Positions 34,833 to 53,139 of a DNA stretch of 64,000 nucleotides are shown here, piece by piece. The notes below the pieces were generated by a model. It did not search any database. It had not been told where the DNA came from and saw only the letters and a program-made list of their open reading frames with translations. The position numbers and the translations under genes are program-made. Source of the stretch: a virus. Position 1 is the first letter of the stretch. Every line of letters starts with the position of its first letter. Location: positions 1-64,000 of IMG/VR virus record IMGVR_UViG_3300025881_000008. The stretch is one strand, 5' to 3'.

Positions 34833-36041
34833 TTAAAATAATGCCGAAGCGTAAATTAGGTTAGTATCTAGTGTTTGGAGGCCGATGGCTGTCAGTACTC
34901 TGTTTAAAGGATCAATCATTGCCTTTTCAAATTGAGTATCGTAATCAACATGTGGCGCAATTTCATATGGATATTCATTTGGCATAAATGCGTAGACCTC
35001 ACTAATATTACCAATACAATTATAGATCTTTAGCTTTTCACCATTTTGAATGTGTTTATACTTATTCTTATACTTTTTATTATTATTTAAAATATAATTA
35101 TAGTAACCTGCTGCTTTTACGTTAGCTGGGCATTTTAGTCCAATCTGTAATTCTTTCTGATCGTCAATAATATATTGATCAATATTATTAGTTCTCTTAT
35201 TAAATGAAATATCATCAATATCTGCTAGCTTGAATTCCTTTTTACATTTTTTCATAAACTCAACCAGTTGTTGCAATTCTGTTGCCGTTGGTTGTATTTC
35301 TGATGTAAATAAAATTCTAAGACATTCTACTAATTTTTCTCTGGCAAATTTAGGAGTTGAAGACTGTATAGTATCAAAGCCGATGGTCTTTACTTTCTTA
35401 AGTGAAGGGTGCCTGTCAGTTACTTCTAGTTTATCATCCCATGCGATATTCTGAATGTACTTTTTCTTAGACATCCAAATACCATTATATGCTAAAGATT
35501 CAAGTTCAAATATAAGGAAGTTATCAGTGTTTCTTTTCTCTGCATATTTTTCCATACATTTACTAATATAATCTTTTAGTCTGAATGCATAGAACGCAAG
35601 AATAAACTCATCAATCTTCAGTTTCTTAGTTTCATCTGGCCATATAATAGATTCGTATAGATCTTGAAACTGTACGTAACATGAATCTGTATCAATGTAG
35701 ATTACCGCAGGTTTCTCAATTTTACCCTTTACTTTAATACCAAATTGTTCATGAACAGCAGTGTCTTTATGCCAGAAATCATTAACATACTTATTAAGAA
35801 TTATTTCTGAATAAAGAATAGCATTTTTACCCTGTTTGGTAATTGACTCAGCGATGTCAAGGTTAAAGAAGTGAAACCACTTGTTACCAAATGCACCGTA
35901 GATAGAGTTAAGAGTTAACTTAACCGCTTGCTCGTATGCAGTGTATTTGGCAGAAAGCTGCTTGTAGTGATCTACAAGCAGCTTCGCCTCATCATCTGTG
36001 AGTTGATCGATTGGTTTATTTTCTAACTCTTCGATTGTCAT
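34833..36041 (-). CDS. Family B DNA polymerase, C-terminal subunit (fingers-palm-thumb)
   Basis: Motif B KLTLNSIYG, motif C YIDTDS, KKKY. Confidence 0.92.
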   Translation of the reverse strand: MTIEELENKPIDQLTDDEAKLLVDHYKQLSAKYTAYEQAVKLTLNSIYGAFGNKWFHFFNLDIAESITKQGKNAILYSEIILNKYVNDFWHKDTAVHEQFGIKVKGKIEKPAVIYIDTDSCYVQFQDLYESIIWPDETKKLKIDEFILAFYAFRLKDYISKCMEKYAEKRNTDNFLIFELESLAYNGIWMSKKKYIQNIAWDDKLEVTDRHPSLKKVKTIGFDTIQSSTPKFAREKLVECLRILFTSEIQPTATELQQLVEFMKKCKKEFKLADIDDISFNKRTNNIDQYIIDDQKELQIGLKCPANVKAAGYYNYILNNNKKYKNKYKHIQNGEKLKIYNCIGNISEVYAFMPNEYPYEIAPHVDYDTQFEKAMIDPLNRVLTAIGLQTLDTNLIYASALF

Positions 36042-36044
36042 CTA

Positions 36045-36788
36045 TTAGGCTGTTTGGCAAGTTGAAATTGTCAACAAAGTGTGTGAATCATTTGATTCGA
36101 ATACAACTTTGGAATCTGACACATAAACTGTTTGCTCTTCCTTGTCTAATAGATTCAAATACTTCTTGTAAACAGTAACTTTACCGTTACCATTTGTATC
36201 TGGCGTAAGCACTACGTTAAATGACTTACCATTTACATTGATCCCCGCAACATCAGATTTGATACCGAATGTCTCATCCTTGTCCAATGAGAATAGATTT
36301 TTAACTTTACCAATTGAGTGTGTGTCCAATTTAAAGTCAAACTGTGAATCGGTTCGTGCGAAAATCGCATCGCGTTGCTCTTGTGAGAGATCTTTAAAGC
36401 CTAATGATGGCTCAGAACAAGATAGTGTAATTTCCAGTTCGTCATTAAAAATACGAAGTGTAGAAGCTACAAACTCTTCGTCATTCTCGATGAATTCCAA
36501 CTCACCTTTAATAGCATCATGCTCAAAGTGCTTGATGGCTTCAATAACTCGATTACCTTCAAAGAAAGCAATTTTCATCTCCTTGTCAGTGTCAGGCCAT
36601 TCGCTTACTTGAAAAATGGTATCAGCTTGAATAGAGTGGTGTTTTACAGCATCTCGTTGTGGAAGATAAACTGTTGATTGGATTTGACCATCTTTAATTT
36701 TCATATAAATGAAAGAGTCAATAAGTTTAACACGATTGATAAACTCTGTTAATGCATGTTGATCAATGCGATCGATTTGTAATTTCAT
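36045..36788 (-). CDS. gp45: Sliding clamp (gp45-like)
   Basis: 247 aa, two-domain beta-rich pattern, adjacent to the polymerase, replication-class promoter. Confidence 0.65.
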   Translation of the reverse strand: MKLQIDRIDQHALTEFINRVKLIDSFIYMKIKDGQIQSTVYLPQRDAVKHHSIQADTIFQVSEWPDTDKEMKIAFFEGNRVIEAIKHFEHDAIKGELEFIENDEEFVASTLRIFNDELEITLSCSEPSLGFKDLSQEQRDAIFARTDSQFDFKLDTHSIGKVKNLFSLDKDETFGIKSDVAGINVNGKSFNVVLTPDTNGNGKVTVYKKYLNLLDKEEQTVYVSDSKVVFESNDSHTLLTISTCQTA

Positions 36789-36820
36789 AAATTTATATTT
36801 TTAGATAATGATATTTGAAT

Positions 36821-36849
36821 ATTATACAGAGATCTGTGGAATAGTTTCA
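36821..36849 (-). promoter_or_regulatory. Replication-class promoter TGAAAC-N17-TATAAT upstream of the clamp gene (representative of ~10 copies)
   Basis: Same architecture upstream of the gp62-like, gp44, gp55, uvsX, dUTPase, DUF6378 and gp32 genes. Confidence 0.7.
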
Positions 36850-36862
36850 TTAAAAATGAAGC

Positions 36863-36946
36863 AAAAAAAGGGCAGAGATAGTAGCGAACTTTCTCTGCCC
36901 AACCCGTTAACTATAACGGTCCTAAGACGTGGTCTTTAAACCACAC
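36863..36946 (-). ncRNA. Structured 3'-UTR element / candidate small RNA with 23S rRNA H69-H70 complementarity, ending in an intrinsic terminator
   Basis: Three hairpins (36929-36944, 36904-36919, 36870-36900) plus U7. Plus strand 36908-36926 is TAACTATAACGGTCCTAAG and 36881-36891 is GTAGCGAACTT, matching 23S rRNA ~1911-1929 and ~1930-1940. Confidence 0.6.
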
Positions 36947-36951
36947 CTAAA

Positions 36952-38661
36952 TTATGCTTCGCAGCTTGCACATTCTAAAATATTTCTAGAAAATGATTGT
37001 GCTGAACTTTGACTAAATTGATAGTATAACGTTTTAACTCCTTGTTCATGTGCCTTTAAGTACAATTGATTGATATCTTTAGCAGAAACTGAAGGGTGAA
37101 TCATTAAATTAAGAGATTGAGACTGATCAATAAATTGTTGTCTTTGACCTGCTTGTAAAATTAATTCGCTTGGAGAGATTTCAATAAATGATTTAAAAAC
37201 TGCCCTTGTTGGAAAGTCTAGGTGTTGTACACTTCCATCTTTTTTCAAGATATCTTCCCAAACCGCAGGTGTATTTAAACCATATTTTTCTAATTCCTCT
37301 GTTAAGAATGGATTTTTGTAGATAGTTTTTGACTTAGCCAAATCTTTAATAAAATAATTAGATTTGATTGGTTCAATTCCCATACTTACAGCACCGTGAA
37401 TAAAAGAACTAGATTTAGTAGGTGCAATAGCAACTAATGTTGTATTAGCAAAACCTTTTCTAAGTGATCTATATCCTTTTTCGTCGTGGAGCCACATGGA
37501 AGCTGCATCAGTTTTTTCTTTAAGAGTTTTAAATATCTGGTAGTTTAATTGTTTTGCTTCCAAAGATTCAAATTCAATCAATTTAGATTGGAATAAAGAG
37601 TGGTAACCTAAAACACCAACGCCTAATGCTCTGTGTTGTTCTGCAAAACGGTGTGCTCTTGACATTCCTGGCATATTATATGACTTCTTAACGAATTCGT
37701 CCATAACTGCGTTTAAGAATAGAGTATAAGTCTCGATTGCGTCAGTGTCTTTTAATTCATCCCAATGTAGAAGATTAATAGAACCTAAACAACACACAAA
37801 TGAATTGAATGAATCTGTTGGTAATTGAATCTCACTACATAAATTAGATGCTGTGATTTCAAGACCTAGATCTTTATATGGTGAATTGTTATTTGTAGTA
37901 TCTTTAAACATAATGTATGGAAAACCAAACTCGTTACGTCTTTGGATAACTTTAGCCCATAATTTACGCTTGTCAGCATCTCCGGCTTTCATTTCTTCTA
38001 GCCATTGGTCAGTTACTGTAATACCATATTGAAGATTTTGAATTGGATTACCTTCTGTTCCCATATCTAAGAATTCAGATGCATCTGGGTGTTCAATTGG
38101 TAACCATGCTGCACATGCACCACGTCTAGCTTCTGATTGTTTACACACATCAACTGTAGTGTCATACATTCTTGCGTAGTGAACTGGACCATCTGCTGTT
38201 CCACCTGTAGAAATAGTAGCACCTCTTTCTCTAATATTACCTAAGAAAATTGAGGTTCCTCCGCCATATTTTGACATCATTCCAATTTCTCTACTTCCGT
38301 TCAAGATACTATCTAATGTGTCATCAACATTTGAACCATAACAACTGATTGGAAGTCCTTTGTCCTTTCCAAAGTTAATCCAAACCGGAGTAGACATGCT
38401 ATAAAAGCCTCTTGCCATGTAGTCTTCAAACTTCTTTGCAAAACCTTCAATCTTTAAATACTTTTCTGCGACATTTGCAATGTCTTTAATTCTTTGTTCT
38501 GGAGATTCTGTAATATAACCTCTTGATAAAAATAATCTACTTTCATCATTTAGCCAGTAATATTTTTCTCTGGTATTTATTAAATTTTCTTCTCTGTTCT
38601 CCGCGCGCGGAGTTTGTAAATCTTGCTCTTTTTCAGCAAGAACTTCACTGGCTTTTTCCAT
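36952..38661 (-). CDS. nrdA: Ribonucleotide reductase class I alpha subunit (no ATP cone)
   Basis: PISC, GGGT, RRGA, SNLCSEI, APT, KTLYY, C-terminal CASCE. Confidence 0.95.
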   Translation of the reverse strand: MEKASEVLAEKEQDLQTPRAENREENLINTREKYYWLNDESRLFLSRGYITESPEQRIKDIANVAEKYLKIEGFAKKFEDYMARGFYSMSTPVWINFGKDKGLPISCYGSNVDDTLDSILNGSREIGMMSKYGGGTSIFLGNIRERGATISTGGTADGPVHYARMYDTTVDVCKQSEARRGACAAWLPIEHPDASEFLDMGTEGNPIQNLQYGITVTDQWLEEMKAGDADKRKLWAKVIQRRNEFGFPYIMFKDTTNNNSPYKDLGLEITASNLCSEIQLPTDSFNSFVCCLGSINLLHWDELKDTDAIETYTLFLNAVMDEFVKKSYNMPGMSRAHRFAEQHRALGVGVLGYHSLFQSKLIEFESLEAKQLNYQIFKTLKEKTDAASMWLHDEKGYRSLRKGFANTTLVAIAPTKSSSFIHGAVSMGIEPIKSNYFIKDLAKSKTIYKNPFLTEELEKYGLNTPAVWEDILKKDGSVQHLDFPTRAVFKSFIEISPSELILQAGQRQQFIDQSQSLNLMIHPSVSAKDINQLYLKAHEQGVKTLYYQFSQSSAQSFSRNILECASCEA

Positions 38662-38686
38662 GTTGTGTGTTAAATATTTTTGTTAA

Positions 38687-39667
38687 TTAAAATAAATCGT
38701 CTTCGGTAATTGACTTGCTCTTCTTGTTATAGTCAACCTGCTTTTTATAGAAAAAATCACCCTCTTTAGTAGCTGTGATTTCTACATCGAACCATAGTGT
38801 TTTTTCTAGTTCGGTGAAATCAACATCAAATATTGGTTTCATTCCAATACGAGTTAGTGAATTATTAAATCTGTTTTGTATAAAATTCTTAATGGTATCC
38901 TTAGAAAGAAAGTCAAGCTCTCCTTTTTCAAAGATCCAATCAAGGATTTTAACTTCGGCTTCATATGCCTTTCTACACGCAGAATCAATAAGTTCTTCAA
39001 ACTCTTCATCAAACCATTCAGGGTTCTCTGCTTTAATTATATTGATTATTTCAGATCCAAAATTACCGTGAATTTCTTCTTCTTTAGATGTTGCCTCAAC
39101 TACATTTGAGATACCTTTGAATAGGTTTTTCTCTTTGTTGAAAGACATCATAATTAAGAATTGGCTAAATAAACTTACATGTTCAATAAATAATGAAAAT
39201 AGAAGTACTGATTTGGTGTACATTTTATCATCTCTACTTCTTGTACCGTCTAAATACTTTCTTAAATAAGCTATCCTGTCTTTGATAGCTGGAATTTCTA
39301 CAACATTTTGGAATTCTTTTTCCAAACCTAAAACTCTAAGTAATTGAGCGTATGCATCTTTGTGTCTTACTTCAGACTCTGCAAATGTCATACCAACATC
39401 ACCTACTTCGGTGATTGGCATTCTTTTATAAAGATCTGCCCAAAAAGTTTTAACATTAACTTCAATTTGAGCAATAGCTAACATCGCTCTCTTAATTACT
39501 TCTCTCTCTTGTTTAGAAATTTTTGTCTTGAAGTCGTCAATATCTGTGGTAAAATTAAATTCAGTGTGGATCCAGTATGAGTGTCTAATAGCGTCTTTAT
39601 AAGCTAATAGTTGTGGATATTCGTATGGTAGGATATTAACCCTTGGTGCAAAAATGTTCTTATTCAT
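38687..39667 (-). CDS. nrdB: Ribonucleotide reductase class I beta subunit
   Basis: ESEVRHKDAY, EHVSLFSQF, KEEEIHG, DFF, C-terminal EDDLF. Confidence 0.95.
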   Translation of the reverse strand: MNKNIFAPRVNILPYEYPQLLAYKDAIRHSYWIHTEFNFTTDIDDFKTKISKQEREVIKRAMLAIAQIEVNVKTFWADLYKRMPITEVGDVGMTFAESEVRHKDAYAQLLRVLGLEKEFQNVVEIPAIKDRIAYLRKYLDGTRSRDDKMYTKSVLLFSLFIEHVSLFSQFLIMMSFNKEKNLFKGISNVVEATSKEEEIHGNFGSEIINIIKAENPEWFDEEFEELIDSACRKAYEAEVKILDWIFEKGELDFLSKDTIKNFIQNRFNNSLTRIGMKPIFDVDFTELEKTLWFDVEITATKEGDFFYKKQVDYNKKSKSITEDDLF

Positions 39668-39724
39668 ACAGTTAGTTTATTTTAGTAATTTATATATCGG
39701 TTAGTGGTTGAGGGTATTGGTAAT

Positions 39725-41128
39725 TTACAGTTTAAATTTTTTTTCAATTTCGTGTGCCTTCTCATAATATGAGTATGAGGTCTTTTTATAGTCTTTACGT
39801 TGAGCATATAAATCACTCAGAATTTTCTTAAGAATAGAGTCTTCTTTCTTAAAGACTACACCATTCTCACAAACGATTACCGACTCATCTTTTCGTCTTT
39901 CGTTAATATCTGCTTGTGGTATTTGTTCAACATAGGATTCGGGGGAAATATTAAATTGTCTCATAATAGATGGATATAGAGAGGCAAAGTCAAATGCACT
40001 TACTCCACTGTAGTATCCAACAATAGGTTGCTTTACAAATGCTCCTTCAAATTTACCATCTTTAAGAGAATCCGCTTTACCATACTCTACTCCAATTTTT
40101 TTATTTGTTTCAGCTAGCTTTCTGGCTAATAGTGATTCTGTAATTGCCACTGGTGATGAGGCTTTATAAAGAGGCATTCTAGTAATAGTGGCCAATGTTA
40201 ATAGAACTTCCATTGATCTTAATTGCTTGTCTATATAATAAACCAAACAGGAGTCAATTACGTTGTAGTAGACATATTTAGTAAAATCATTTTCATAAAG
40301 ATCTTGTAATGAACCTGTGTATTTAATTTTGGTAACATCTAAAACTGCACCTGACACAAAGTCTAATGAGTTAGATTCTTTTACCGCAACTGATCTGTCA
40401 TATTTGTCATATAATTGCATGTAATCTAAAATACCCATATGAAGAGGTCTACTATCATTTCTGTCAAGTGATCCAGTGATCGCCACATCAGTCAGGTCGA
40501 TCTGAAGTCTCTTGCAACGATTAACTATATACTGCCAGTCATAGTTGATAAAATTCCATCCAGTCATCATTGGGAACTTAGGTAAAAACTTATGCAAGAA
40601 TGTATATAACATATTGTACTCATTATCAAATTTATGATATGAGAATTCCCAATCTTGATCATAGTTCTTTAGGTGGGCATTAGTATCTTTCTCAATTTTA
40701 GCAATCTGCTCTGATGTTAAATCTTCAAGACCTAATACAATTGCTTTACGCTCAGGCGTGATGATCGAGAAGGTTAAGATACGTGACTTAGCCTCTTCTG
40801 GTTTTGGGAAACCATCAACGATTTCTGTTTCAATATCGACGAAATATGTTCGAGGCATATTGAATTCATAAATCTCTTCTTTATCTGCCGCTGGCAGGCT
40901 ATCCATAAAATAGAGTAGACTGAACTTATTAAATGACTTAGCGATACCTCTTTTTAGTGGGCGATTGTCCCAGTTTCTAAAAGTCTTATCCTTATATTTA
41001 TCTTTTTCTTCTGTAACTACCCAATTTTGGAATTGGTTTACAGTGTATCTTTTAAAGGAAACTTTACCCTCTTTGTCATAATAAGAGATGATAAGTTCCT
41101 TGTCAGTTTGTTCAATGTCTAATAGCAT
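39725..41128 (-). CDS. Family B DNA polymerase, N-terminal subunit (3'-5' exonuclease plus motif A)
   Basis: ExoI DIET, ExoII GWNFINYD, ExoIII YNVID, motif A FDFASLYPS, NISPE. Confidence 0.92.
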   Translation of the reverse strand: MLLDIEQTDKELIISYYDKEGKVSFKRYTVNQFQNWVVTEEKDKYKDKTFRNWDNRPLKRGIAKSFNKFSLLYFMDSLPAADKEEIYEFNMPRTYFVDIETEIVDGFPKPEEAKSRILTFSIITPERKAIVLGLEDLTSEQIAKIEKDTNAHLKNYDQDWEFSYHKFDNEYNMLYTFLHKFLPKFPMMTGWNFINYDWQYIVNRCKRLQIDLTDVAITGSLDRNDSRPLHMGILDYMQLYDKYDRSVAVKESNSLDFVSGAVLDVTKIKYTGSLQDLYENDFTKYVYYNVIDSCLVYYIDKQLRSMEVLLTLATITRMPLYKASSPVAITESLLARKLAETNKKIGVEYGKADSLKDGKFEGAFVKQPIVGYYSGVSAFDFASLYPSIMRQFNISPESYVEQIPQADINERRKDESVIVCENGVVFKKEDSILKKILSDLYAQRKDYKKTSYSYYEKAHEIEKKFKL

Positions 41129-49994: not shown

Positions 49995-51842
49995 TTATAT
50001 ATTCTTAATAAATTGATCGAAGGTCATAACAGATTTTGACTCTGCCAAAACACCCATACTGTCTTCTAATTTAGACTTTAATTCACCATACATGTTGTGT
50101 ATCTCTTTAGGTGTTAGTTTCTTAAATAGCTTCTCATCACCATCTAGCATTGCATTTCTAACTTGCGTAGCTGAAATATTTTTACCAGTTCTTGGAATTT
50201 CAAAAAGACCAAAATCAGTCCTTACACCCAAGTCTTCTCTATATTCTGGTTTATCAACTTGATATGAATACGTTTTAAGTCTATCACTTCCAGTGCCCCA
50301 TAATACGGGTTCATAACCATCGGCTCTCATTGTATTAAACATTAGGTCAATTGCTCCCCTGTCAATAATATAAACCTTCTCAATTGGATATTTACCTTTT
50401 AGTTGGTTTAACATTTGAAGTTGAGTTTCTTCGTCGTATGGTCTAGAAAAAGCATCCTCTTTCTTTTTAGTTTTTGATTTAACTAGAAAAACAACTACCG
50501 GATAACCGTTTTGTTTATTAATAGTCTCAACTACTTTAGCATGGCCCAGCGTAAATGGTTGGAATCTACCAACGAACATGTTGACTGGTGTTTTACCTTG
50601 TTCTGGGTATTTAACTGTAAGCCCCTCTAAAACTGGACTAACTTCATGTTGAAGTTTTTGGTTAACTAAATATGTTTTAAATGTCATAACGTCATTTTCA
50701 TTTGTTTTTGCCATTACAATGCCTTCTATAGTTTCAACTATTTCATTGATTTGGTTCATTAAGTCAGTGTTAATAATGTCTGTTTCTCTAGTTCTCTTCT
50801 TTCTAAAACTACCTAACGCAATTTTAAATAACTCTGCCAAAACTTTATTTTGAATTAATGATATTGTTTTTTCATCTTTAATAAATGTACGATTAAGATC
50901 AAATCCTTTGTTGTCTGAGAAATCAGCTGAATCAAAATTAGCTCCAATATATTTAGAGGCATTCTTTTCAATGTATGCATTAAATATATTTGAGATTAAT
51001 TCAATATATCTAAGGTCTGACTCTTCTTCTGATATTTCAATAGCTAATAAATCATAGTTAGTAATAAATTCTACTAGATCTAAAATTGAAATCTGATACA
51101 TGTCAGATGGACTTCTTTCCTCTTGTGGTTTTCTATCAAATCTCTCTAGCTTAAAACTCTTAATGTTTTTACCTTCGTAGAAATTGATTATTAACCCATC
51201 AATATCTTTATCTAGTGTAAAGTTTAACGCAGGAGTATTAAGGCCATTATTAAATATATTGTATATTGTTCTAGTAAATGATTGTGATTCAAACTTAGTT
51301 ATGAAGTCTTGATCAGATGTGTTTAGAAGCGATATAAGGTCGTCCTTTTGATTAGATTGTAGTTTACCTTCAAATACAATTGGCGGTCTCTGAACTCCTA
51401 ATTTATCCGCCCATTTGTTTAGAACCTGTGGATCTCTAATTACTTTTTTAATTTGAGTAGGATCATTTGGGTTTAATACTTGTATATGTGTTAGGATTAA
51501 GTGGTTTTTAGGTAGTACATCATATTCAATGCTTACCGTTTTATTATCCAACATGTAGTCAAAGCCGAATTTCCAATCTAATGGCATCTCTTCGGTAACT
51601 TCTTTTAATATTGTTGAAAAATATTTAATACCATTTTCATAGTATTTAACCATGGTTCTATCTACTCTATCCATCTGGTATTTAGAACCGCTTTTATAAT
51701 AGTTAAAGCCTGTATCGGTTCTTTTAACATGAAATGAAGATGCTTGAATCTTTTCAGATACAACGCATGTCAGGTCCAACATAGCCAAAAAGTCATTGGT
51801 ATTAGTTGATTCAAAATATGTTCTTAAGTTTTGTAAAGCCAT
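49995..51842 (-). CDS. Fusion of a degenerate RNA-ligase-like domain and a HIGH-family nucleotidyltransferase (cytidylyltransferase/NMNAT-like)
   Basis: N-terminal SEKIQAS, IDGLII, FKLE; C-terminal GRFQPFTLGH, GSDR, ISATQVR. Confidence 0.7.
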   Translation of the reverse strand: MALQNLRTYFESTNTNDFLAMLDLTCVVSEKIQASSFHVKRTDTGFNYYKSGSKYQMDRVDRTMVKYYENGIKYFSTILKEVTEEMPLDWKFGFDYMLDNKTVSIEYDVLPKNHLILTHIQVLNPNDPTQIKKVIRDPQVLNKWADKLGVQRPPIVFEGKLQSNQKDDLISLLNTSDQDFITKFESQSFTRTIYNIFNNGLNTPALNFTLDKDIDGLIINFYEGKNIKSFKLERFDRKPQEERSPSDMYQISILDLVEFITNYDLLAIEISEEESDLRYIELISNIFNAYIEKNASKYIGANFDSADFSDNKGFDLNRTFIKDEKTISLIQNKVLAELFKIALGSFRKKRTRETDIINTDLMNQINEIVETIEGIVMAKTNENDVMTFKTYLVNQKLQHEVSPVLEGLTVKYPEQGKTPVNMFVGRFQPFTLGHAKVVETINKQNGYPVVVFLVKSKTKKKEDAFSRPYDEETQLQMLNQLKGKYPIEKVYIIDRGAIDLMFNTMRADGYEPVLWGTGSDRLKTYSYQVDKPEYREDLGVRTDFGLFEIPRTGKNISATQVRNAMLDGDEKLFKKLTPKEIHNMYGELKSKLEDSMGVLAESKSVMTFDQFIKNI

Positions 51843-51852
51843 GTTGTGTTGT

Positions 51853-53139
51853 TTATCTTCCGTACTTAATAATACCCATAAGCTGGTTAATTGCAGCGAA
51901 TGTTCCTGTTAACTTAAATGTCTTGCCTTTATAAACAAAGACAATCCCTTCAGTTGGCATAATTGAATCAATTCCACCTATTCTTTCTAATCTAGCTAAT
52001 TCAGCTTCAACTTTTTGTATCTGTTCGATTGATCCACCTTTTTTAATTTTATCAGCTTCGGTTCTAATTTGATTATGTAATCTTTGCATTTCAGCATCTG
52101 GTGACGCAGCAACAAAATTAGAAGCGTTTTTTAGAATAATAGAACCTAGTTCTAAGAATAGATCTTCAAACGGTCTAATATTCTCTTTGTATTTCTTAGC
52201 AACATCTTCTTTGTCAAATTTCTTAATAATAGCTGCCTTGTCTTTTCCAAGTTCTTTGTCTAAAGATCTTAAATTAAGGGTCTTTTTATCTCCATATGCC
52301 CATCTTAATAATAAACCTTCTTTAAAGTCTTGTGTTAAATCTGGGAAATTTGAATCTATAGTTTCCCTCCACCACATTTCATGATAGCGGCTAACTTCAT
52401 CAGCGTCTGTCAAATTATATTTGTCGCGGAGCGCTTCAACCTTCTTAATAAATTTATTTTTATTTTCTTCAAAATTAAGGTCCTTACCTAATTTAATTAT
52501 TTGAGGTGGAATTATAGTAAATGTTTTACCGACATTTGCTTTAACAGACTCTAAGGCTTTTGCTATTACTGATGCAGGTTTATTATCTTCACCAATTATA
52601 TTACCATTACCATCTGTCTTTTTTATACCATGAAATTGAATAATATCTCTATCATAATAGATTACATTTGGATTTTTAGAATAGATCAATTCCATGTTCA
52701 TCCAATTGAGTCCATTTTCAAATACTTCTTGTTGAACTTTAGCTGGTAATTTAATCAACGCATTGGCTAAATCTTCTGCAGCAAACTTAAAAGTTTCTTC
52801 AACCATTGCAGATGCATGTCCATCAAATTTTTGCTTAAACGTTTGAAGATCCATTGGTGTTATAAGTTCACCCTTGTTACGAGCAAATTTAACCTCACCA
52901 TCTTGAATAGTTGCAAATACATTTTGTCCATCTGTTTTTTCAGTAGCGTCCTCTTCAAAATTAAGTTCACCACTTAAACCAGCTTCTATAAGAGCTTTGA
53001 AATCTGTAAATGTTAATGACTTATCATCAAATGGATGTGCCATATGACCGGCAGCCCCGCCTTCTAAAATTAAAGCTTCTTTTATATTTGAATGTAATTT
53101 TTCAGTTACAAACTGTTCAAAATTATGGTAGATCTTCAT
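51853..53139 (-). CDS. ATP-dependent ligase-fold nucleotidyltransferase (Rnl2-like), putative internal protein
   Basis: Motif I TEKTDGQN, ARNK, motif III NMEL, IIIa QFHG, motif IV EGIV, motif V FKLTG; N-terminal MKIYHNFEQFVTE. Confidence 0.7.
   Translation of the reverse strand: MKIYHNFEQFVTEKLHSNIKEALILEGGAAGHMAHPFDDKSLTFTDFKALIEAGLSGELNFEEDATEKTDGQNVFATIQDGEVKFARNKGELITPMDLQTFKQKFDGHASAMVEETFKFAAEDLANALIKLPAKVQQEVFENGLNWMNMELIYSKNPNVIYYDRDIIQFHGIKKTDGNGNIIGEDNKPASVIAKALESVKANVGKTFTIIPPQIIKLGKDLNFEENKNKFIKKVEALRDKYNLTDADEVSRYHEMWWRETIDSNFPDLTQDFKEGLLLRWAYGDKKTLNLRSLDKELGKDKAAIIKKFDKEDVAKKYKENIRPFEDLFLELGSIILKNASNFVAASPDAEMQRLHNQIRTEADKIKKGGSIEQIQKVEAELARLERIGGIDSIMPTEGIVFVYKGKTFKLTGTFAAINQLMGIIKYGR

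Follow-up and report, generated by a model that had tools for sequence, protein, structure and literature searches.

Small RNAs that act by base-pairing are known regulators of mRNAs, and our searches of the literature found no description of a viral or bacterial RNA built to pair with ribosomal RNA (rRNA) in trans. Here, we show by comparative sequence analysis that the 3′ end of the nrdB–nrdA transcript of an uncultured marine jumbo phage, contained in a window of 64,000 nt (the whole stretch of DNA that was analysed, positions 1 to 64,000 of IMG/VR record IMGVR_UViG_3300025881_000008), belongs to a family of RNAs with a defined fold and strand, that its complementarity to helices 69 and 70 (H69–H70) of 23S rRNA is selectively maintained, and that the only complement is of host origin. 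We lean, with a modest preference, towards the reading that this 3′ end of ~85 nt acts by base-pairing with the 23S rRNA of the host; the device recurs on several RNA scaffolds in well over a hundred uncultured phages, and these viruses probably act on host rRNA directly with RNA. The parts of the element, all on the minus strand, are as follows.

36946 down to 36863, minus strand: whole element, the last ~85 nt of the nrdB–nrdA transcript
36952–36954, minus strand: stop codon of nrdA, 8 nt upstream of hairpin H1
36929..36944, minus strand: H1, 5′ hairpin GUGGUU-UAAA-GACCAC, from the fold; optional across the family
36918..36926, minus strand: aE1, seed C-UUAGGACC, complementary to 23S G1929 and 1921–1928
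36904..36919, minus strand: H2, CCGUUA-UAGU-UAACGG, from the fold; an antisense image of helix 69
36870..36900, minus strand: H3, terminator hairpin, from the fold; 9-bp stem GGGCAGAGA/UCUCUGCCC with the apical part AAGUUCGCUACUA
36881..36888, minus strand: aE2, seed UUCGCUAC in the apex of H3, complementary to 23S 1930–1937; holds a YUNR motif (UUCG)
36863..36869, minus strand: U7 tract that finishes the intrinsic terminator, read directly

On the plus strand, positions 36908–36926 read TAACTATAACGGTCCTAAG, with CCG and an additional T in front, positions 36881–36891 read GTAGCGAACTT, and a run of A7 occupies 36863–36869. The two segments match adjacent segments of 23S rRNA at 19 of 19 and 10 of 11 positions, in swapped order and split at G1929|G1930, as the first-pass annotation of this DNA had claimed; we read both matches directly and checked the E. 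coli 23S, of which the 44-mer GGCCGTAACTATAACGGTCCTAAGGTAGCGAAATTCCTTGTCGG is present with 100% identity in each of the 5,426 complete E. coli genomes, annotated there as 23S rRNA. Recomputing the chance estimate given there for the 19-mer alone under uniform base composition (64,000 x 2 x ~4,500 / 4^19) returned the same value of ~0.002, and chance is excluded because the pattern recurs, in 30 viral contigs of IMG/VR in its exact permuted form and in at least 120 in a degenerate form. A chimeric assembly, the artefact that the annotation had proposed to look for, is rejected together with 23S contamination and an rRNA gene fragment, on account of the phage flanks, the permuted order and the recurrence with covariation in more than 150 contigs. 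Separately, we note one IMG/VR ‘viral’ contig, L371 (IMGVR_UViG_2775507074_000001), which carries a genuine segment of a 23S rRNA gene with rRNA continuing on both sides; this segment is cellular contamination or a transduced fragment.

The minus strand folds into three hairpins at −38.1 kcal/mol (z = −5.1; 0 of 200 shuffles as stable), which reproduces the structure described earlier. In this phage, the complementarity of aE1 extends through H2 to 36908 and spans 19 nt in total (23S 1911–1929), the loop and closing bases of H2, UAGUUA, being complementary to the H69 loop (1911–1916). H3 is built as an intrinsic terminator, its 9-bp stem running directly into U7; a consensus terminator scanner does not list it, the loop limit of the scanner being 8 nt. 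The mean predicted probability of being unpaired is 0.81 for aE2, 0.53 for aE1 and 0.34 for the rest of the element. Whole-molecule duplex energies were indistinguishable from those of shuffles and were excluded from use. The element begins 8 nt after the nrdA stop codon, which agrees with its earlier placement at the end of the nrdBA transcript and gives it the position of small RNAs derived from the 3′ untranslated region (3′-UTR), namely at the 3′ end of an mRNA whose terminator it shares. Across the family, the distance to the preceding stop codon, that of a phage gene, is usually 6–30 nt, and the terminator is shared with this gene. This 3′-end position is kept after nrdA in all class-1 relatives (the classes are given below), where the preceding gene always ends in ...C-x-x-C-x-G*, and after other genes in the other classes; in class 1 and class 4, every member has a T-run after H3. 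One locus, L027, was considered as a stand-alone gene with its own promoter and rejected, as its element also follows nrdA.

Which strand of the element is the functional one? The nrdA-sense strand has 45 G.U pairs and the opposite strand 8, and this difference indicates that the functional molecule is the transcript antisense to rRNA and not an rRNA mimic. A further count, restricted to the H3 stems of the 169 distinct family members that we collected from IMG/VR contigs, gives 87 G.U pairs. The polarity of the terminator agrees with the antisense strand favoured in the first-pass annotation, and the plus-strand decoy mimicking rRNA that it had kept in reserve is disfavoured on the same two grounds.

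Since selection of loci by the pattern itself would bias any estimate of conservation, we assembled a set of loci fetched by protein, via the 175-aa protein that precedes class-4 elements and via the clamp protein encoded downstream of the element in the window, and aligned the elements to the model, which left 45 distinct sequences. In relatives found through the clamp protein (72–96% identity), the element stands immediately after the nrdA stop codon. Every base opposite 23S 1921–1928 pairs in 45 of 45 elements, and the only variants there, A>G at U1923 (3) and C>U at G1922 (6), both form wobble pairs; UCGCUAC opposite 1930–1936 is invariant in 45 of 45. The complementarity comes to a sharp end at A1938, with a mismatch in 44 of 45 elements; at G1929 and G1930 it is frayed. 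Only one change, G>A opposite C1920, breaks a pair with 23S, and H2 makes up for it internally (G-C to A-U), which assigns this base to the H2 stem. The relatives thus retain the rRNA-matching bases and not merely the terminator.

All three stems, in contrast, change by compensatory substitution in the relatives while the two segments stay fixed. H1 occurs as GUGG/CCAC, GAGG/CCUC, GGGG/CCCC, CCGAUC/GAUCGG and CCAACU/AGUUGG and is missing from some class-4 members, and the three inner pairs of H2 covary, G.U included, as UUA/UAA, AGA/UCU, UGG/UCA, GGA/UCU and AAA/UUU. For H3, both partners change in all 5 modelled pairs, pairing occupies 88% of cells compared with 67% in shuffles (0/500), the covariation score is 0.60 versus 0.25, and no slid register performs as well as the observed one. 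Over the 169 elements with their 74 arm types, H3 arms form 7.3 consecutive pairs with their own partner and 3.3 when arms are swapped. The constant patches are aE1 Y-UUAGGRYC (opposite 1929–1921), the H2 loop UAGUUA (1916–1911) and aE2 (1937–1930), and, as far as the collected members reach, they are the only parts kept across very different phages and scaffolds; the H2 loop is still UAGUUA or GUUA where the H2 stem is unrelated to H69. A conserved unpaired seed on a variable scaffold, the second hallmark of a 3′-UTR-derived small RNA, is therefore present as well.

The sole contiguous or extended complement of these patches that we found is the H69–H70 stretch of bacterial 23S rRNA, which is universally conserved. 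The 30-mer of 23S 1911–1940 is exact in 54 of 54 copies found in a sample of 43 Bacteroidota genomes and in E. coli, and seeds that are identical across otherwise different phages and scaffolds are as expected if the partner is invariant across hosts. No contiguous sense copy is present in the record that holds the window or in near-complete phage genomes, where matches with 2–3 mismatches occur at chance level. According to the Rfam consensus of large-subunit (LSU) rRNA, 1906–1911/1919–1924 form H69, 1925–1929 form a one-pair mini-loop, 1930–1934 and 1936–1944 are unpaired, and G1935 pairs with C1962, so that the seeds aim mainly at bases outside helices. The target stretch is dynamic in late 45S precursors (PMC3737534).

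The degenerate pattern, defined by the two fixed segments only (TTAGGRCCG, a gap of 20–50 nt, then TTCGCTACT), yields 104 distinct sequences among the matches listed from viral contigs, nearly all with the ordered architecture. The same pattern has 85 matches in 596 Gb of prokaryote genomes, of which just 2 show the architecture, both in short contigs of metagenome-assembled genomes, and it is for this reason that the family, within the sequences searched, is essentially virus-specific. Near-complete jumbo genomes (226–338 kb) contain exactly one copy each by both pattern and covariance model, the next-best matches to the model having E values of 0.03 or worse. The permuted architectures are at least four.

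Class 1: nrdA-type three-hairpin form, as in the window
Class 4: with or without H1; a different H2 stem (GUUAUCC...GGGUAAC)
Class 2, long form: ~100 nt, no terminator; a helix around aE1 and H2, then an extra hairpin
Class 3: long form without H2; aE1 in a hairpin loop

Further 3′, class 2 has a helix that displays the 11-nt loop AAUUCGCUACU and then the conserved AAAGUGAGC. With CC ahead of UUAGG, the aE1 of the long forms extends over G1929 and G1930 as well, two bases that are also within reach of aE2. L352/L363 and L358 are nrdA-type forms with shorter aE2 loops. Further viral contigs that are not rRNA genes were found with a continuous 18-mer antisense to H69. In six of them (L355, L356, L361, L365, L369 and L372) a colinear form, AAUUUCGCUAUCUUAGGACCGUUAUAGUUA, is contiguous with 1911–1940 and followed by a terminator, its sole deviation being a U opposite G1930 (wobble), and L364 has a single-seed form that consists of the aE1 seed and a terminator only. 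Because colinear and single-seed versions exist, the swapped order is, among the members at hand, one solution of several, and the common denominator is antisense complementarity to 23S 1911–1940. The conservation that the first-pass annotation asked about is thus found for both rRNA-matching segments and for stem covariation; the permuted order that it had described is not essential, and its clean division of the target into two parts gives way to complementarities that overlap or fray at G1929/G1930. The upstream gene differs by lineage as well, being NrdA, a Dps-like protein or the 175-aa protein, while other elements lie upstream of terminase.

The colinear-form contigs come from GC-richer phage and their terminator is GC-rich. 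In the long forms (L145:5700-5815, L080, L074 and ~30 other loci), we also observed an extra covarying hairpin, GGCGGCUGCUGCC or GCCGGCUGCUGGC, and AAAGUGAGC stands where other members have the terminator. A 10–12 nt match of the long-form hairpin C to the 16S 530 loop, and a match of AAAGUGAGC to 23S near position 1100, were both rejected, since they are equally frequent in sense and reversed controls.

The family matches no RNA that we could find described, in agreement with the first-pass annotation, which knew of no phage element of this kind. Rfam 15 returns no family at the gathering threshold in the window or in 12 loci of the other classes, and for the element itself, at E values up to 10, only matches at chance level. 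Searches of GenBank phages by blastn with three element types gave only 23S contaminants, the invariant words being too short for BLAST, and the literature, queried both for the topic and for the motif strings, yielded no account of such a phage RNA. A companion RNA antisense to the 3′ tail of 16S rRNA was looked for in the window and not found.

How might the RNA act on its target? We envisage that H1 and the terminator would protect a stable 3′ fragment released from the transcript, and that this fragment would bind 23S rRNA while the stretch is exposed, which may be the case in nascent rRNA, in late pre-50S particles with H67–H71 undocked, or in free 50S subunits from which H69 protrudes. 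For reasons of stoichiometry, nascent rRNA and late pre-50S particles are the most plausible targets. The first contact may be made by the aE2 loop with the unpaired 1930–1936 junction; YUNR motifs such as the one in this loop are found in fast-binding loops of known antisense RNAs. Subsequently, aE1 would pair with 1921–1929 by opening the 3′ strand of H69, and pairing could be extended further via the H2 loop. Where the order is permuted, aE2 is enclosed in a loop whose topology should restrict it to about one helical turn, in keeping with its constant length of 7–9 nt. Such a complex would block docking of H69–H71 and formation of bridge B2a and keep new or free large subunits from translation; more speculatively, the trapped particles may be cleaved or degraded, which would supply ribonucleotides to the adjoining ribonucleotide reductase. 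Taken as a whole, the proposal that unrelated large aquatic phage lineages have convergently evolved RNAs, on bipartite loop-displaying, colinear or single-seed scaffolds, that seize H69–H70 and stop 50S maturation or subunit joining, possibly feeding nucleotide salvage, is one to which we give slightly less than even credence.

Six runs of RNA data contain the stretch, all as contigs; four of these runs were aligned to it, and RNA-library contigs from three studies cover the region. Contig depth is 209–353 over the element compared with ~11 in the flanks, and derives from short contigs shared with related strains. For run X14, the region at 36640–36948 of the window, comprising the element and the 5′ end of the clamp gene, has a depth of 130–350 versus ~11 in the flanks, and the loose ends of its short contigs show other family variants.

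Several considerations weigh against action by base-pairing with 23S rRNA. The seeds are short (8 and 7–8 nt), aE1 is partly sequestered in the predicted fold, bases 1921–1924 lie in the H69 stem, and the whole stretch is engaged in tertiary contacts in the mature 50S subunit. Pseudouridines, and m3-pseudouridine at 1915, could hinder pairing of the H2 loop. The RNA contigs give no verdict on accumulation, ends or strand, the jump in depth being confounded by related strains. To titrate tens of thousands of ribosomes, the RNA would have to be very abundant, and blocking ribosomes brings no obvious gain to a phage that itself depends on them. Finally, part of the element may descend from captured rRNA gene sequence (rDNA), in which case any conserved piece would look anti-rRNA; this objection is weakened by the diversity of scaffolds and by the restriction of substitutions to wobble-forming ones.

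That last objection is the core of an alternative reading, according to which the element binds a protein or is purely cis-regulatory (a terminator, mRNA stabiliser or operator) and its rRNA complementarity is a relic of rDNA capture. H3 with its U-tract is an intrinsic terminator by architecture, three-hairpin 3′ ends do stabilise transcripts, and H2 in this phage is a near-perfect antisense copy of H69, as rDNA descent would have it. However, long forms without a terminator still keep both seeds, the seeds are identical though phage proteins and scaffolds differ wholly, and independent scaffolds keep the same complementarity, with substitutions limited to those that pair with 23S. A protein partner is not apparent either: clustering of 1,174 neighbouring open reading frames from 136 loci gave only general T4-like replication and packaging genes, none of them constant across classes, and the gene next to the element here encodes a sliding clamp. 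We therefore consider this explanation unlikely. A tether in cis, by which the element on the mRNA would hold large subunits or ribosomes near phage transcripts and aid translation or re-initiation, can be likened to the rRNA-complementary enhancers of viral RNAs, and it would suit an element whose conserved trait is rRNA complementarity and which usually lies so shortly past a phage stop codon, with a shared terminator. Pairing with H69/H70 would, however, occupy the interface needed for 30S joining, a single copy per 226–338 kb genome would benefit only one transcript, the host gene changes between lineages, and some scaffolds, seed plus terminator, resemble stand-alone small RNAs, all of which makes a tether rather improbable in our estimation.

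A protective or anti-defence RNA, which would cover H69–H70 or soak up rRNA fragments against a nuclease or toxin of the host or of a competitor that attacks this site, or splint rRNA repair, we judge to be about as improbable as the tether. Conservation of the element across many phage lineages could be explained in this way, and its target adjoins the helix/loop 70 site cleaved by mycobacterial MazF toxins and coincides with the I-CeuI recognition sequence, a hot spot for homing endonucleases and introns. Yet shielding would call for stoichiometric binding to all ribosomes, which would itself block subunit joining, and the permuted seeds do not span the 1929/1930 break as a single uninterrupted strand. 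Genes for RNA ligases or for repair do not recur next to the element, and the ‘ligase-fold proteins’ at 49995–53139 named in the first-pass annotation are not ligases by Pfam, which finds one cytidylyltransferase-like domain and otherwise no match, so that the repair splint suggested there is without local support. The I-CeuI site and intron hot spot, together with the split polymerase gene of this phage and the frequency with which nrd and polymerase genes of T4-like phages host mobile endonucleases, could also be taken to favour a role at the DNA level or on the plus strand, as a relic or decoy of an I-CeuI-type or group I site, as a mobile element's circle junction or as a decoy that mimics rRNA. 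This is the explanation to which we attach very little probability: this phage has no contiguous site, only a split and permuted one, Rfam detects no intron core and no endonuclease gene is nearby, the G.U pairs and the terminator U-tract are on the antisense strand, and the element is single-copy without terminal repeats. None of these four explanations fits the combined pattern as well as base-pairing with 23S rRNA.

Narrower identities were also tried and rejected. A group I intron or I-CeuI homing site, for which a contiguous recognition site of ~26 bp or a catalytic core with an endonuclease gene would be expected, is contradicted by the split and permuted site, by the lack of an Intron_gpI match and by neighbours that are NrdA and a sliding clamp. 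A box C/D or H/ACA guide would need boxes, and neither RUGAUGA, CUGA nor H/ACA boxes occur in the 101-nt RNA; colinear order would be needed for either an RNase P external guide or an H/ACA pocket. A group I internal guide has the wrong order, whereas recognition of the group II EBS type has the same order but no intron. For a cis-encoded loop-presenting antisense RNA of the CopA or RNA I type, a sense copy is missing from the record and from near-complete phage genomes. A permuted intron–exon or circular RNA, and a prophage att site or aberrant-excision junction, were discarded on reading or topology.

Among known systems, the 3′-UTR-derived base-pairing RNAs CpxQ, SroC and DapZ, which share the intrinsic terminator of their mRNA, come close in architecture: the phage element likewise follows a stop codon, uses the mRNA's own terminator and presents short unpaired seeds on a covarying scaffold. 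RNAs of this kind usually target mRNAs with Hfq or ProQ. The phage element differs in that its seeds complement rRNA and not mRNA, are bipartite or tripartite and partly placed in hairpin loops, and in that it is virus-encoded and aimed at a host molecule. With CopA/CopT of plasmid R1, RNA I/RNA II of ColE1 and Sok/hok it has in common a YUNR loop and a second single-stranded segment, a combination that suggests two-step binding in which loop contact is followed by helix extension. CopA, RNA I and Sok are cis-encoded opposite their targets; the target of the phage RNA, in contrast, is absent from the phage genome and is rRNA. Eukaryotic and archaeal box C/D, H/ACA and U3 RNAs pair with conserved pre-rRNA through short, sometimes bipartite antisense elements, and the phage RNA is similarly small with short antisense parts to conserved rRNA; unlike them, it has no boxes, its antisense order is permuted, it belongs to a bacteriophage, and genes for partner enzymes were not found. 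Group I introns at LSU 1917–1951 use an internal guide that pairs with both junction flanks. The phage element recognises the same 23S stretch as these guides and I-CeuI, without an intron core or endonuclease gene, and its guide parts are 40–60 nt apart in an order opposite to P10–P1. Among synthetic antisense oligomers against rRNA, a peptide nucleic acid (PNA) against H69 has the same target helix and, in the account of Kulik et al, 2017 cited in PMC12828698, blocks translation and growth of E. coli; as far as that citing account goes, this effect shows that the H69 site is reachable and vulnerable. The PNA described there is short and unstructured, whereas the phage RNA is natural and structured and also targets the 1925–1937 junction.

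If base-pairing with 23S rRNA is indeed what the element does, viruses would control ribosome biogenesis or subunit availability with an RNA of ~60–100 nt, at a site that is identical in essentially all bacteria. Host takeover by phages would thereby gain a new layer, based on RNA and directed at the ribosome, with a bearing on nutrient economy in marine and freshwater environments. Research on ribosome assembly would obtain a natural tool with which to probe or trap late pre-50S particles, and rRNA-directed antisense antibacterials a natural template. The family is abundant, single-copy and easily synthesised, and its target is identical in E. coli, which makes the proposal directly testable at the bench.

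The record that holds the window is 104 kb long with an estimated completeness of 34%. Judged by the polymerase, the nearest relatives are huge uncultured phages, the Lak Prevotella megaphages, and Chryseobacterium phage MA9V, and the DNA of the window turns up again in runs of marine and estuarine origin that belong to 14 studies. The element is positioned between nrdA and the gene of a 247-aa protein (ORF247), and the genes around it are all on the same strand as nrdA.

36952..38661, minus strand: nrdA, ribonucleotide reductase large subunit (Pfam Ribonuc_red_lgC, E 4.5e-94)
36821..36850, minus strand: promoter-like ATGAAA-18-TATAAT belonging to the next gene; outside the element, whose downstream limit it marks
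36045-36788, minus strand: ORF247, divergent gp45-like sliding clamp by predicted fold

The sequence of ORF247 has no match in Pfam, PHROG or PDB. A structural model of its N-terminal half, with two beta-alpha-beta-beta-beta units, matched only PCNA and beta-clamp structures, at E values down to 1.7e-4, and by this predicted fold ORF247 is a divergent PCNA/gp45-like sliding clamp; its candidacy as a protein partner of the RNA was rejected on the same basis. Upstream of the clamp gene, the motif TGAAAC, 17–18 nt, TATAAT is kept in all relatives, including loci L033–L069, and may be the early or middle promoter consensus of this phage group.

The family B (gp43-like) DNA polymerase of this phage is cleanly split into two genes on the minus strand, 39725–41128 and 34833–36041 (region 34833–41128), at position 495|494 of the PHROG 262 profile and with no space for an intein; nrdB, nrdA, the anti-23S RNA and the clamp gene lie between the halves. 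Elsewhere in the window, the 615-aa protein at 49995–51842 (minus strand) has a C-terminal cytidylyltransferase-like nucleotidyltransferase domain (E 5.5e-8), and the 428-, 575-, 521- and 136-aa proteins that neighbour it have no match in Pfam.

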